The translations under genes and the position numbers were made by a program. The notes below the pieces were generated by a model, which ran no database searches, was not told the DNA's origin, and worked only from the letters and a program-made list of their open reading frames with translations. DNA of 38,495 bases from Thermosynechococcaceae cyanobacterium (lineage in GTDB: Bacteria; Cyanobacteriota; Cyanobacteriia; Leptolyngbyales; Leptolyngbyaceae). The DNA lies in assembly GCA_036703905.1 (NCBI GenBank), contig DATNQR010000718.1, positions 1-38,495 on the forward strand. Direction: 5' to 3'. Positions 30,119-35,315 of this stretch are shown piece by piece. Position 1 is the first letter of the stretch; each line of letters opens with the position of its first letter.

Positions 30119-30907
30119 ATGTCAGTCTCCTTTCTAGCGGTAGCGCCGCAGTTAGCTCAAGCGCCCCCCAAATTCAGTAAAACTCAGCCCGCCTCTACCC
30201 CCGCTAAACCAGCCGAGAGTGGTTTCAACCTGTGGATGGGCGCAAGCGGAGTGCTGTTCTTACTGCTGGTGGGGCTGGGGGTCTACTCCAAGCTGAGTGC
30301 AGACAAACTGGCAAAGCAAGTCAAATTTGAAACCTTCAAGAACCGGGAGCTTCAGAAAAAGCTGAAATATGCCGTGGAAACGATCGGCAAAATGGAGCGC
30401 AACCCCGACCTGATCCACTCCCGCGAATTCAACCTTGACTACTTGAGAATGCGGATGGATGAAGAAGTTTTCCACTTCGCCATCTTGAACCAGATCAAAA
30501 TCAAAGTGAAGGAGAAAATCAGCGTAGCCCTACGGCCGGGTCAGGCTAGTCAGGGCGAACTGGGCATCGCCAGCAGTGGGCGACACATTGATGAGATTTT
30601 TGACGTGGAATATGATCCAGGAGACTTGCCTAAAGGCAACCGCCGCGTTCTGTTCCGCATTCAGATCAAAATCTTTAAGCTCCCCACCCAGCCCACATCC
30701 GTTACCATCAACCAGATCATTGACTGCATTGAGACGTTCCTGCGCCCTAACAGCGACCACGACACCTGGCAACCCACCATCCAAGGCCGCATCGCTACCA
30801 TGCACTGGGATCAGAAGGCCAAACCCACACCGCTGCTAGTGCTGGAGCAAACCCAGGAAGGCAGCAACGTTACCTTCAGAACCACCCGCATGGCCCAGAA
30901 TAGCTAA
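30119..30907 (+). CDS. Hypothetical membrane-anchored protein (262 aa)
   Basis: ORF with ATG start. One TM helix (FNLWMGASGVLFLLLVGLGVY), then a Lys-rich predicted coiled segment and a globular C-terminal part. No family recognised. Confidence 0.5.
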   Translation: MSVSFLAVAPQLAQAPPKFSKTQPASTPAKPAESGFNLWMGASGVLFLLLVGLGVYSKLSADKLAKQVKFETFKNRELQKKLKYAVETIGKMERNPDLIHSREFNLDYLRMRMDEEVFHFAILNQIKIKVKEKISVALRPGQASQGELGIASSGRHIDEIFDVEYDPGDLPKGNRRVLFRIQIKIFKLPTQPTSVTINQIIDCIETFLRPNSDHDTWQPTIQGRIATMHWDQKAKPTPLLVLEQTQEGSNVTFRTTRMAQNS

Positions 30908-31017: not shown

Positions 31018-32235
31018 TTGTTCAAATCTTCTGGAAAATGGATTGCAGTTCTAGCGATCGCTGCTCTAAGCGTGTCGGGAGTCGGCATCTTCTTAGCGCT
31101 ACGGCCCTCAACTTCTGCTCAGAATGCTACCCCGCCCACCGATCGCGGCGCAGACAGCGCCAGTCCTACGGGCGCGATCGCAGCTTTGGGACGGCTAGAG
31201 CCAGGGGGCGAGACCTACTGCGTCTATCCGCCTTCCTCCTCTGGTCTGAGCGGCACAATCAAACTGTGGCGGGTACGCGAGGGCGATCGGGTTAAGCAGG
31301 GCGACGTGATTGCAGTCATGGATACCTACGAGCGCTTGGAAGCGGCTGTGGTTCAGGCGCAGGCCCAGGTGGGCGAAGCCGAAAGCCGTGTGGCTCAGGC
31401 TCGGCAGGGATCAAAGCCCGCAGAAGTCAGCGCCCAGTCTGCCCAGATTGCCGCCAGAGCCGAGCAAGCCAACGCCAAGCAAGCAGAAGTGGTGCGGCGG
31501 CGAGCAGAACTAAAGAATGCGCAGGCGCAACTGAAGAACGCGCAGGTAGAACTGAAACGGGCTGAAGACTTGTTCAAAGTGGGGGCTGTCTCTGAGTCGC
31601 AACGGGATTCTCGTCAGACTGCCTTTGAATCTGCCAAAGCAGCTTCGGAAACTGCCGAAGCTGCTTTGGAGCAAACTGGCCGAGAAGTACAGCAGGCGGT
31701 GGCTGAGTTTCAGCAGGCGGGGCAAGTGAGGGAAGGACTGGTTCAAGTGCGCGATGTGGATGTGCAACAGGCGATGGCCCAGCGCGATGTGGCAGTAGCC
31801 AACCTCCGCAAGGCGAGCGTGGATCTAGACACGGCGGCGGTGCGCGCCCCGATCGCGGGTCAGGTTCTCAAAATTCACGCCAAAGAAGCAGAGCAGGTGA
31901 GTAGCGGCGTGGGGGGCAGCAACTCCAACGAATGCAATGGCGTAGCTGAACTGGGGGAAACCGATCGAATGTATGCCGTAGCTGAAGTTTACGAAACTGA
32001 TGTTGTCAGGGTTCGTTCCGGTCAGAAAGCCACAATTTCCAGCACTGCCTTTCCTAACAAAATTACGGGCACAGTGGAACGGGTGGCTCTGAGAGTCGGC
32101 AAGAAAGATGTATTGAACACTGATCCCGCTGCTGATACGGATGCCAGAGTGGTTGAGGTGAGAATTCGTCTGGACGACAGCAAGTTAGTTGCAGGCTTGA
32201 CAAATTTGCAGGTCAAAGTTGCGATCGCGCCCTAA
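31018..32235 (+). CDS. devB: ABC exporter membrane fusion protein, DevB family (HlyD-like)
   Basis: N-terminal TM anchor, ALGRLEPGGE, RVREGDRVKQGDVIAVMD (lipoyl-like hairpin), a long Ala/Gln coiled coil, and VRAPIAGQVLKIHAKEAE. The only in-frame start is TTG at 31018. Confidence 0.8.
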   Translation: MFKSSGKWIAVLAIAALSVSGVGIFLALRPSTSAQNATPPTDRGADSASPTGAIAALGRLEPGGETYCVYPPSSSGLSGTIKLWRVREGDRVKQGDVIAVMDTYERLEAAVVQAQAQVGEAESRVAQARQGSKPAEVSAQSAQIAARAEQANAKQAEVVRRRAELKNAQAQLKNAQVELKRAEDLFKVGAVSESQRDSRQTAFESAKAASETAEAALEQTGREVQQAVAEFQQAGQVREGLVQVRDVDVQQAMAQRDVAVANLRKASVDLDTAAVRAPIAGQVLKIHAKEAEQVSSGVGGSNSNECNGVAELGETDRMYAVAEVYETDVVRVRSGQKATISSTAFPNKITGTVERVALRVGKKDVLNTDPAADTDARVVEVRIRLDDSKLVAGLTNLQVKVAIAP

Positions 32236-32425: not shown

Positions 32426-33586
32426 ATGTTCGCCATTCCTCTAGCCTGGTTACAGCTAAAACGTGAAAAGGTTCGTCTGCTGATTGCTCTGGCGGGCATT
32501 GGTTTTGCCGTTATCTTAATGTTCATTCAACTGGGCTTTCGAGACGCTTTGTTTGATAGCGCAATACGGATGCACCAGAACTTGCAGGGCGATGTTTTTT
32601 TGGTCAGTCCTCAATCCACTGCCCTGATCGCCATGAGGAGCTTTTCCCAGCGCCGCCTCTATCAAGCACTGGGATACGAAGGGGTAGAATCTGTCAGTGC
32701 GGTCTATCTGGACTTTGGGCTGTGGAAAAACCCCGATAATCGGCGCACTCGTGGAATTTTGGTGATTGGGTTTGACCCGAAAGAACCTATCTTTTCTCTG
32801 CCTGGAGTGGTGCAGGGCTTGGATAAGATTCAGCTACCGGACACTGTGTTGTTTGATGAAGATTCCAGGGAAGAGTTTGGGCCGGTTGGCAAGAAATTTG
32901 AAGCGGGAGAGCTTGTTCAAACAGAGGTAGCAGGACGACGAATCACGGTGGCTGGATTGTTCAAGATGGGGGCTTCTTTCGGAGCAGACGGCAACATTGT
33001 CACCAGTGATTTGAACTTTTTCAGAATTTTCGATCGTCGCAAGGCTGGACTCATTGACGTAGGGCTAATTAGGCTCAAGCCAGGAACCGATGTGCAGTCC
33101 GTGATGAATTTGCTGCGGAAGGACATTCAGGAACCCAACAGTGATGTCAAAGTGATGTCTAAACAGGAATTCATTGAGTTTGAGCAAAACTACTGGAAAA
33201 GCAGCACGGCGATCGGGTTTATCTTCACTCTGGGGGCAGCGATCGGGTTTGTGGTGGGCACGGTGATCGTGTACCAAATTCTCTACACTGATGTCACCGA
33301 TCACCTAGCAGAATACGCCACCCTCAAAGCGATGGGCTACCGCAATAGCTATTTGCTCTCAGTTGTATTCCAGGAAGCATTAATTCTCTCAATCATGGGG
33401 TACGTTCCCGGCTTTCTGCTAGCGCTCGGTCTCTACAATCTGACTCTGAAGGCCACCTCGCTGCCTATCGCCATGACCACAGATCGGGCAATTACCGTAT
33501 TGTGCCTGGCGATCGTCATGTGTACGATTTCTGGTGCGATCGCAGTTCGCAAAGTCCAGGATGCTGACCCCGCCGATATTTTCTAG
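32426..33586 (+). CDS. devC: ABC exporter permease, DevC family (FtsX/MacB-type)
   Basis: MFAIPLAWLQLKREKVRLLIALAGIGFAVILMFIQLGF is the DevC N-terminus. A periplasmic domain is followed by the C-terminal FtsX-like 3-TM module. Confidence 0.85.
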   Translation: MFAIPLAWLQLKREKVRLLIALAGIGFAVILMFIQLGFRDALFDSAIRMHQNLQGDVFLVSPQSTALIAMRSFSQRRLYQALGYEGVESVSAVYLDFGLWKNPDNRRTRGILVIGFDPKEPIFSLPGVVQGLDKIQLPDTVLFDEDSREEFGPVGKKFEAGELVQTEVAGRRITVAGLFKMGASFGADGNIVTSDLNFFRIFDRRKAGLIDVGLIRLKPGTDVQSVMNLLRKDIQEPNSDVKVMSKQEFIEFEQNYWKSSTAIGFIFTLGAAIGFVVGTVIVYQILYTDVTDHLAEYATLKAMGYRNSYLLSVVFQEALILSIMGYVPGFLLALGLYNLTLKATSLPIAMTTDRAITVLCLAIVMCTISGAIAVRKVQDADPADIF

Positions 33587-33638: not shown

Positions 33639-34565
33639 ATGTCACTTCCATCAAAATCGCTGCAAGCTCTACTTCTGAGCGTGTGCAGCTTTGCGCTCGT
33701 TCTGGTCGTTGCTGCCGGCTTTAACCCAGCGGCGATCGTCGCCCAAGAATCCCCGGCTCCAGCAAACAATGCTTCCCCTGTGCCTACCCAGAGTGCTCAA
33801 CCCAGTCCGGCTACCGCCAGTCCAACTGCACCTGATGCCCCAGGAGACATCGTAGAGGTTTTCATGAATGTGCTGAGCTTCGACCCCGTGAAGGGCGAGG
33901 TGGACGCTCGGTTAGAGTTTATTCCTAGAGGCAGTTATCGGCTGAACGATACCGATTTTCCCGCTAAAAACCTGCTGTTGACTGTGAATAACGTTGAGAA
34001 GCAAGGATCGCAGCTCACCTTCAAGAAAGGCAAGCCGATGGATGCGTCCAGCCTTAAGTTCATCACCAGTGAGGGCGATGCCGACAGCTATCCCTTCGAT
34101 CGCCACACGGCTGAGGTTCTCTTTTACCTGGAAACTACCGAAGGAGCAGAAGTGCCGCTGACCCTCAATTTCTTCGGCAAGCTTCCAGGCTACGATATTG
34201 AATACGCCACCGAGAAAGACAACTCAGCTGATCTGATTAACATTGATGTCAACGTCTCTCGATCTGGCACAACCAAGTTCTTCTCGATCGTCGTAATGAC
34301 GACGCTATGGGTGCTGGCGCTGTTGTCTTTGATGGTGGCGCTCAAAGTGGCTCAGTCTGGCAAACTTCCAGAGATTGGGATGTTTGGCTGGATGGCGGCT
34401 CTGCTATTTGCCTCTCCTGCCGTCCGCAACACCCAGCCCAATGTGCCGCCCGTGGGAACCGTGAGCGATAGTTTTTCCCTGCTGCTGACAGAAACGATCG
34501 TCGTCGTTGCCCTCGTGATTCTAGGAACTTGCTGGTTGCGCCGCTTCAATGCTCCAGCCAAGTAG
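33639..34565 (+). CDS. Membrane protein of unknown function (DUF4436-like from memory), inserted between devC and devA
   Basis: Signal/anchor MSLPSKSLQALLLSVCSFALVLVVAAG, a P/A/S-rich linker, a beta-rich ~170-aa ectodomain containing SYPFDRHTAEV, then three TM helices. Same strand, with 52-nt and 57-nt gaps to devC and devA. Start at ATG 33639 (TTG at 33609 is possible). Confidence 0.6.
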   Translation: MSLPSKSLQALLLSVCSFALVLVVAAGFNPAAIVAQESPAPANNASPVPTQSAQPSPATASPTAPDAPGDIVEVFMNVLSFDPVKGEVDARLEFIPRGSYRLNDTDFPAKNLLLTVNNVEKQGSQLTFKKGKPMDASSLKFITSEGDADSYPFDRHTAEVLFYLETTEGAEVPLTLNFFGKLPGYDIEYATEKDNSADLINIDVNVSRSGTTKFFSIVVMTTLWVLALLSLMVALKVAQSGKLPEIGMFGWMAALLFASPAVRNTQPNVPPVGTVSDSFSLLLTETIVVVALVILGTCWLRRFNAPAK

Positions 34566-34622
34566 CGTTATGGGGAGAATTAAAACATTGCTCCCCACCT
34601 GCCTATCTCCTCGTTACCTCCT

Positions 34623-35315
34623 ATGCAAGAACCCGTCATCTCCATCCAGCAGGTCAACCACTACTTCGGCACGGGTAGGCTTCGCAAGCAAATCCTGTAT
34701 GAAGCCACAACAGATATTCAGCCCGGAGAAGTGGTGATCATGACGGGGCCGTCCGGCTCTGGCAAAACGACATTGCTGACTTTGATTGGGGCCCTGCGAT
34801 CGACCCAGGAAGGCAGCATGAAGGTGCTGGGCGAAGAACTCAGCAACGCCCCCACAAACCTGCTGGTGAAGGTGCGGCGCAGTATTGGCTACATCTTCCA
34901 GGCTCACAATTTGCTAAAGTCCTTGACGGCTCGGCAGAACGTGCAAATGGCGCTGGAACTGCATGACTATTCTGACCAGGAACGTCGATCGCAAGCAGAA
35001 GCGATGCTGGAAGCTGTCGGTTTGAAAGACTGGGTTAATTACTATCCCCAGGAGCTATCTGGTGGACAGAAGCAGCGTGTGGCGATCGCCCGTGCTTTGG
35101 TTGGCCGTCCCCGCATCGTCCTGGCCGATGAACCCACTGCCGCCCTAGACAGAAAATCTGGTCGAGATGTAGTAGACATCATGCAGTCCCTAGCCAAGCA
35201 GCAAGGCTCGGCGATTCTACTCGTTACCCACGACAACCGAATTTTGGACGTAGCCGATCGATTGATTCACATGGAGGATGGACGGTTGGCTTCGCTGGAT
35301 CGATCGCCCGTCTAG
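34623..35315 (+). CDS. devA: ABC exporter ATP-binding subunit, DevA family
   Basis: Walker [10 protein letters not shown], signature [15 protein letters not shown], Walker [13 protein letters not shown] and H-loop LVTHD. The N-terminal [12 protein letters not shown] is typical of DevA. Confidence 0.85.

Follow-up and report, generated by a model that had tools for sequence, protein, structure and literature searches.

A cyanobacterial stretch of 38,495 nucleotides (the window) carries an open reading frame inserted between the permease and ATPase genes of a DevBCA-type exporter, and so raises two questions: what kind of protein the ORF encodes, and whether its place among exporter genes reflects a role in export. 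The initial annotation had proposed that it resembles a pentameric ligand-gated ion channel (pLGIC) lacking the fourth transmembrane helix, M4, and would be a channel-like sensor module within the operon of an ABC exporter. The reading frame exists as described, running from an ATG at 33639 to a TAG at 34563-34565 on the + strand and encoding 308 aa, and every peptide quoted in support of the comparison is found in the translation (DIVEVFMNVLSFDPVKGEVDARLEFI at residues 70-95, SYPFDRHTAEVLFYLE at 150-165, LINIDVNVSRS at 199-209, and RNTQPNVPPVGTVSD at 263-277). The genes concerned are:

31018..32235, + strand: devB, membrane-fusion protein (context; TIGR02971, E 1.2e-82)
32426..33586, + strand: devC, FtsX/MacB-type permease (context; TIGR01185, E 4.7e-176)
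33639..34565, + strand: DUF4436-family gene encoding a pLGIC-like protein of 308 aa (ORF, Pfam PF14494, AF2 models, Foldseek)
34623..35315, + strand: devA, ABC ATPase (context; TIGR02982, E 2.3e-109)

On the evidence of its sequence the ORF is a genuine gene and a full-length member of Pfam family DUF4436 (PF14494): the match scores 141.9 bits (E 3.1e-41), above the family's gathering threshold of 23.2 bits, and pairs residues 69-301 with positions 21-254 of the 255-position profile. Fourteen close homologues were returned by a word-indexed search and 208 by a profile search, DUF4436 is matched by all 124 homologues that we collected, and an exhaustive HMMER search over 1.84 billion representatives of clusters at 50% identity gave 2210 proteins at E<=1e-3, of which 526 reach E<=1e-30. 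Genome matches come mainly from Microcoleus, Tychonema and other cyanobacteria, and also from Acidobacteria and Actinobacteria MAGs. None of the sources we looked at gives the family a functional name, an NCBIfam scan of the ORF returned nothing meaningful, and the sole literature mention of DUF4436 that we found is a gene list for Aspergillus flavus. Longer family members carry DUF4436 only, sometimes twice, with no other fused domain. Weak matches to a different Pfam family, DUF4307, were seen for 20 of the 124 DUF4436 proteins (best E 0.0025).

Template-free AlphaFold2 (AF2) models were made from the 124-sequence alignment, for the full-length protein (pLDDT 79.8, pTM 0.66) and for residues 68-308 (pLDDT 85.0, pTM 0.72). 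The predicted fold has a helix at 5-26, nine strands within 72-208, and helices at 210-240, 246-264 and 275-303. Together with the alignments described below, it divides the protein into the following parts:

33651..33716, + strand: N-terminal hydrophobic helix TM0, residues 5-26 (AF2 helix, pLDDT 64-82)
33717..33839, + strand: low-complexity linker rich in Pro, Ala, Ser and Thr, residues 27-67, about 40 residues (AF2, alignment)
33840..34262, + strand: predicted extracytoplasmic beta-sandwich domain, residues 68-208, about 9 strands (AF2; hhalign to GLIC ECD)
34089..34100, + strand: YPFD, residues 151-154, equivalent of the pLGIC Pro-loop (Cys-loop) tip (conservation; hhalign to GLIC YPFD)
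34260..34262, + strand: Arg208, pre-M1 arginine (invariant, 124/124; hhalign to GLIC pre-M1 Arg)
34266..34358, + strand: M1-like helix, residues 210-240, without the pLGIC M1 proline (AF2)
34374..34430, + strand: M2-like helix, residues 246-264, after G241-K242 and E245 (AF2)
34431..34469, + strand: M2-M3-like loop, T265-D277, part of an RNxQPxxPxxGxxxD motif (invariant P267, P270, G273, D277)
34461..34547, + strand: M3-like helix, residues 275-303, then a 5-residue basic C-terminal tail (AF2)

The ectodomain strands are placed by AF2 at 72-82, 87-96, 112-116, 125-128, 137-145, 155-166, 174-179, 185-194 and 199-208. The linker ahead of them is disordered in the model (pLDDT <50 over residues 33-67) and, over residues 27-67, gap-rich and variable in the homologue alignment. 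When each of the two models was compared with the PDB by Foldseek, all 50 best matches listed were pLGIC chains (E 6e-9 to 3e-7, probability 1.00), with alignments that span ECD and TMD; the pLGICs among the matches listed include alpha7 and alpha4beta2 nAChR, GABA-A, GlyR, ZAC, Alpo4 and GLIC. Query TM-scores for the matches listed are modest (0.33-0.42 with the full-length model, at most 0.52 with the trimmed model) at an rmsd of ~9 A, and thus indicate a match to the architecture and not a close superposition. The training of AF2 included pLGIC structures, which could favour a pLGIC fold. As far as these models go, the pLGIC subunit fold, a beta-sandwich ECD followed by a helical TMD, is present, and the monomer prediction and structure search that the initial annotation had called for came out on its side, with only pLGICs among the best 50 matches listed.

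Direct sequence searches went the other way. Neither Neur_chan_LBD (PF02931) nor Neur_chan_memb (PF02932) matched the window protein at E<=1 or any of the 124 homologues at E<=10; of the three models that the initial annotation had named for profile searches, only DUF4436 is matched. Because direct Pfam pLGIC matches are absent, any relationship is one of remote homology and not of ordinary family membership. Searches of PDB sequences with phmmer and hmmsearch gave non-significant matches only (E 0.07-4), a few of them collinear matches to pLGICs, including the M2-M3/M3 region of sTeLIC (phmmer, E ~1) and, weakly, the Cys-loop of an octopus chemotactile pLGIC (E ~0.6).

For comparison between profiles, the reference consisted of 42 GLIC-like proteins, all with PF02931 and with or without PF02932. 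The GLIC query behind this set matches database GLIC at 99%, and the GLIC string given in the initial annotation, YPFDSQTLHIYL, was likewise correct. Alignment of the DUF4436 profile (124 sequences) to this set by hhalign gave a probability of 68.7% with E 4.6e-5 over 212 columns, collinear from beta1 as far as the M2-M3 loop, and a local re-run gave 73.7% with E 2.9e-5, both probabilities lying below the customary 90%; the number of collinear columns ranged from 132 to 212 across runs. The alignment places YPFD on the YPFD of GLIC, R208 on the Arg in the ...RISRQ... stretch of GLIC, and QPxVP on GLIC LPKTP (P267 on the M2-M3 Pro), in agreement with the element-by-element mapping of beta1, Pro-loop, pre-M1 Arg and M2-M3 loop that had been drawn by eye. 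Taken by domain, the ECD alone gives E 2e-4, and the TMD by itself does not reach significance (E 0.17), its best local alignment nevertheless falling in the right place, on M2 and the M2-M3 loop. The true score of 43.3 compares with a mean of 26.6 (sd 3.4, maximum 37.2) over 40 block shuffles and with 24.5 for the reversed alignment. From sequence comparison, then, the pLGIC signal is real but weak, and centred on the Pro-loop and the M2-M3 region. The claim of a pLGIC-like protein without M4 is upheld by fold, by motif register and by hhalign E-values of 3-5e-5, but not by a Pfam pLGIC match, and we consider remote homology of DUF4436 to the pLGICs very likely.

The residues that the family keeps point in the same direction. 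YPFD occurs in 123 of the 124 homologues, with Y, P and D invariant, as expected by the initial annotation, and the RNxQPxxPxxGxxxD motif occurs in most of them. Positions invariant in all 124 sequences are Y151, P152, D154, R208, L226, L255, F257, R263, P267, P270, G273, D277 and W299, the last in the M3-like helix, where R302 is nearly so. Over 261 weighted members, the lowest entropies belong to R263, P270, G273, D277, P152, R208, F257, Y151, P267, D154 and W283, all at the junction between beta domain and helices, that is, the ECD-TMD interface. By segment, weighted entropy in the 261 sequences is 1.37 for the M2-M3 loop, 1.72 for M2, 1.94 for M3 and 2.38 for M1, and at 2.86 TM0 is conserved least of all segments in the family. 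M2, with invariant F257 and R263, is therefore the most conserved helix, as would be expected if it were shielded from lipid in an oligomer with its loop contacting the YPFD loop; it is largely hydrophobic and has no clearly variable lipid-facing side. It is preceded by a G-R/K-K-x-E/N/D pattern, in which position 245 is E, N or D in 88%.

In pLGICs, conservation is likewise highest at the ECD-TMD interface, in F/Y-P-x-D, the pre-M1 Arg, the M2-M3 Pro, the M1 Pro and the beta9 Trp (Jaiteh et al., PMC4795631). The Pro of [F/Y]-P-x-D, at the tip of the beta6-beta7 loop, is 100% conserved (PMC4795631), and the frequencies of the pre-M1 Arg, the M2-M3 loop Pro and the M1 Pro are 94%, 88% and 77%. 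Because the invariant positions of DUF4436 cluster at the same interface, its conservation matches the pLGIC pattern of that study.

Prokaryotic pLGICs (GLIC, ELIC, sTeLIC, DeCLIC) thus share with DUF4436 the order of a periplasmic beta-sandwich followed by M1-M2-M3, the [F/Y]PxD tip, the pre-M1 Arg, the M2-M3 Pro and mostly stand-alone genes. There are differences as well, several of which had been anticipated. Whereas pLGICs have four TM helices after the ECD and an extracellular C-terminus, the DUF4436 protein has three: the chain stops 5 residues past helix 275-303 (its end reads RRFNAPAK), at residue 308, so M4 is indeed missing and, because the chain ends after M3, the C-terminus should be cytoplasmic. 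The M1 proline of pLGICs is absent from residues 210-240, as had been noted, and also from the DUF4436 consensus. The ectodomain (68-208) has about 140 residues where GLIC has about 193, and so is some 50 residues shorter, which agrees with what had been said of it relative to GLIC. At the position of the beta9 Trp, GLIC W160 aligns with Y185 here, and the family majority is V, I or F, mostly aliphatic. The beta9-beta10 turn, at the position of loop C, is only ~4 residues long, for which reason a canonical agonist pocket is unlikely. As neither four TM helices nor a Pfam pLGIC match is found, DUF4436 is not to be filed as a pLGIC family.

A feature that the initial annotation lacked is the hydrophobic helix ahead of the ECD, present in most DUF4436 members, which gives a layout of one TM segment before the ectodomain and three after it. 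In the window protein a Kyte-Doolittle TM segment is found at residues 10-28. Bacterial pLGICs have a cleaved signal peptide, and TM0 is a putative signal peptide or uncleaved anchor. If retained as an anchor, it could occupy the peripheral position of M4, whose in-to-out orientation it has.

The reading we favour, and hold to be probable, is that the DUF4436 protein is a pLGIC-like protein of the cytoplasmic membrane that may form a gated pore. An N-terminal helix and flexible linker would lead to a compact periplasmic beta-sandwich, followed by equivalents of M1, M2 and M3 and a cytoplasmic C-terminus. The positions through which pLGICs link the ectodomain to the pore, at the YPFD tip, the pre-M1 Arg and the M2-M3 Pro, are the most invariant ones of DUF4436. 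Subunits would assemble round the conserved M2 helices into a pore, probably pentameric, and a periplasmic signal on the beta-sandwich would pass through the interface of YPFD, Arg208 and M2-M3 loop to gate it. The acidic or polar ring that position 245 would form brings to mind the rings of charge at the cytoplasmic mouth of the pLGIC pore and suggests passage of cations; because M2 is largely hydrophobic, ion conduction is uncertain. Taken by itself, operation as a gated oligomeric channel is a proposition that we place slightly below an even chance. All three observations on which the initial annotation had staked the idea of pLGIC kinship were made: profile-level similarity to pLGICs, a predicted beta-sandwich ectodomain and a conserved YPFD.

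A protein of pLGIC ancestry and fold need not be a channel. It might instead be a monomeric or otherwise organised receptor or anchor, in which a three-helix bundle tethers a periplasmic binding domain, and the lack of M4 and of the M1 proline, the very short loop C and the mostly hydrophobic M2 would all suit such a protein. So would the existence of tandem two-unit proteins. Three representative clusters hold two complete DUF4436 units per chain, with the YPFD motif and the Pfam stretch each occurring twice (P0197, 631 aa; P0219, 771 aa; P0205, 513 aa); such chains sit poorly with an odd stoichiometry or a strict pentamer and fit hetero-oligomers, and if the genes are real, the fusion bears on subunit stoichiometry. 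Against a non-channel role stands the location of the strongest conservation, in the elements of the gating interface (M2, M2-M3 loop, Pro-loop and pre-M1 Arg): a passive anchor needs no invariant coupling interface, and its M2 would not be expected to go without a clearly variable side facing lipid. We therefore think this explanation unlikely. A separate observation concerns a Synechococcus MAG that carries tandem DUF4436 paralogues on the same strand (L071:4781-5677 and L071:5896-6804), 38% and 41% identical to the window protein, which could mean hetero-oligomers.

The genomic setting suggests a different role, in which the protein would serve the tripartite DevBCA exporter as an accessory or sensor subunit: its membrane-anchored periplasmic beta-sandwich would bind substrate or regulate DevC, and its pLGIC-like fold would be incidental. 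To our knowledge the canonical DevBCA operon has three genes and no fourth component. Here the ORF lies between devC and devA, with spacers of only 52 bp (devC-ORF) and 57 bp (ORF-devA) and no terminator-like site between the genes, and it is probably co-transcribed with the dev exporter genes; rpsB and tsf follow downstream of devA. We found no signature of horizontal insertion in the form of a GC anomaly relative to the neighbouring genes. The arrangement recurs in two relatives at 75% identity, as devC-ORF-devA in L005 and as devC-ORF in L004, whose contig stops there. Among distant bacterial members, P0074 also adjoins a PadR gene and two MacB_PCD/FtsX permeases.

Beyond these relatives the association disappears. 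Tblastn searches with DevB, DevC and DevA covered 85 loci. No homologue of any of the three lies within 6 kb at 80 genome loci (27-57% identity; Microcoleus, Tychonema, Synechococcus, Acidobacteria and Actinobacteria), where the flanking genes encode unrelated products (RPE65, primase, RNase R, RtcB, SulP, kinases), and dev neighbours are likewise lacking at the other loci examined, L004 and L005 apart. A homologue at about 48-57% identity, 48% at the lower end, is already a stand-alone gene among unrelated genes, and relatives do not keep the devC-ORF spacer. Neither all-vs-all clustering of flanking ORFs over 20 diverse loci nor Pfam scans of 20 neighbours revealed a partner conserved across lineages; the only synteny was within Microcoleus. 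Compared with DevBCA as defined by TIGR02971, TIGR01185 and TIGR02982, the flanking genes are the same and the extra gene belongs to this lineage only. The proximity of P0074 to MacB-type permeases is probably coincidental. Since dev neighbours are found only here and in L004 and L005 and are absent at the 80 loci, the exporter link is lineage-specific, and the ORF owes its place between devC and devA to an insertion in this lineage and not to a family-wide functional partnership. The notion of a sensor module in an ABC-exporter operon thus finds no support as a general one, the dev linkage being limited to the present genome and to these two relatives. The invariant residues, moreover, fit the gating elements of pLGICs and not an ABC interface. 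A DevBCA subunit is accordingly an improbable identity for the protein.

Several further features of the neighbourhood were recorded. A hairpin at 34571-34597 (GGGGAGAAU...GCUCCCC; centroid free energy -11.9 kcal/mol, z-score vs shuffles -2.3) stands directly after the ORF stop and before devA; having no T-run, it is not a typical intrinsic terminator. An Rfam scan of the window gave no matches. Upstream of devB, a 262-aa ORF (30119-30907, +) has an N-terminal hydrophobic segment and no Pfam match at E<=1. In L004 (L004:1-5973, P0002) there is no devB within 4.8 kb ahead of devC; opposite-strand ORFs of 172 aa and 1338 aa are found instead, and the devC-DUF4436 pair persists despite the rearrangement. 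At the P0074 locus (L087:5001-9123), the PadR gene begins 97 bp after the DUF4436 gene and is followed by the two permease genes, and the DUF4436 gene is divergent from an RND efflux operon.

That DUF4436 has no kinship with pLGICs and resembles them by convergence or through an artefact of modelling, as the missing direct HMM match, an hhalign probability of ~70% and TM-scores <=0.52 might be taken to mean, is scarcely credible, given that motifs, their order and spacing agree with an independently predicted fold, that the hhalign score exceeds all 40 block shuffles, and that the best 50 Foldseek matches listed are exclusively pLGIC for two models.

We classify the finding of a pLGIC-like DUF4436 protein as a remote, M4-less branch related to the pLGICs, not previously reported in the literature searched; no published link of DUF4436/PF14494 to pLGICs was found in a search confined to sources outside most subscription papers and database annotations. 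In its fullest form, which we advance tentatively, DUF4436 would be an unrecognised and widespread sister branch of the pLGICs, composed of gated pentameric channels built from subunits with M1-M3 only, in which the N-terminal helix possibly replaces M4.

If this sister-branch reading is true, nature can dispense with M4, and pLGIC-type proteins extend to fungi, DUF4436 being annotated in Aspergillus, whereas pLGICs themselves have not been found in fungi (Jaiteh et al. 2016, PMC4795631). A structural class would be assigned to a DUF that occurs in bacteria as well as in fungi, and the evolution of pLGICs would gain an outgroup by which it could be rooted. Few receptor families have been studied as much as the pLGICs, for which GLIC and ELIC serve as the workhorse bacterial models. 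A large natural family that has the gating interface and a minimal ectodomain, and does without both the M1 proline and M4, would mark out the smallest core that the fold requires and would put to the test the parts proposed for M4 in lipid sensing and in folding. We know of no prokaryotic pLGIC for which the role in vivo has been established; the placement of the present gene in a dev operon would provide a genetically tractable spot at which to seek one.
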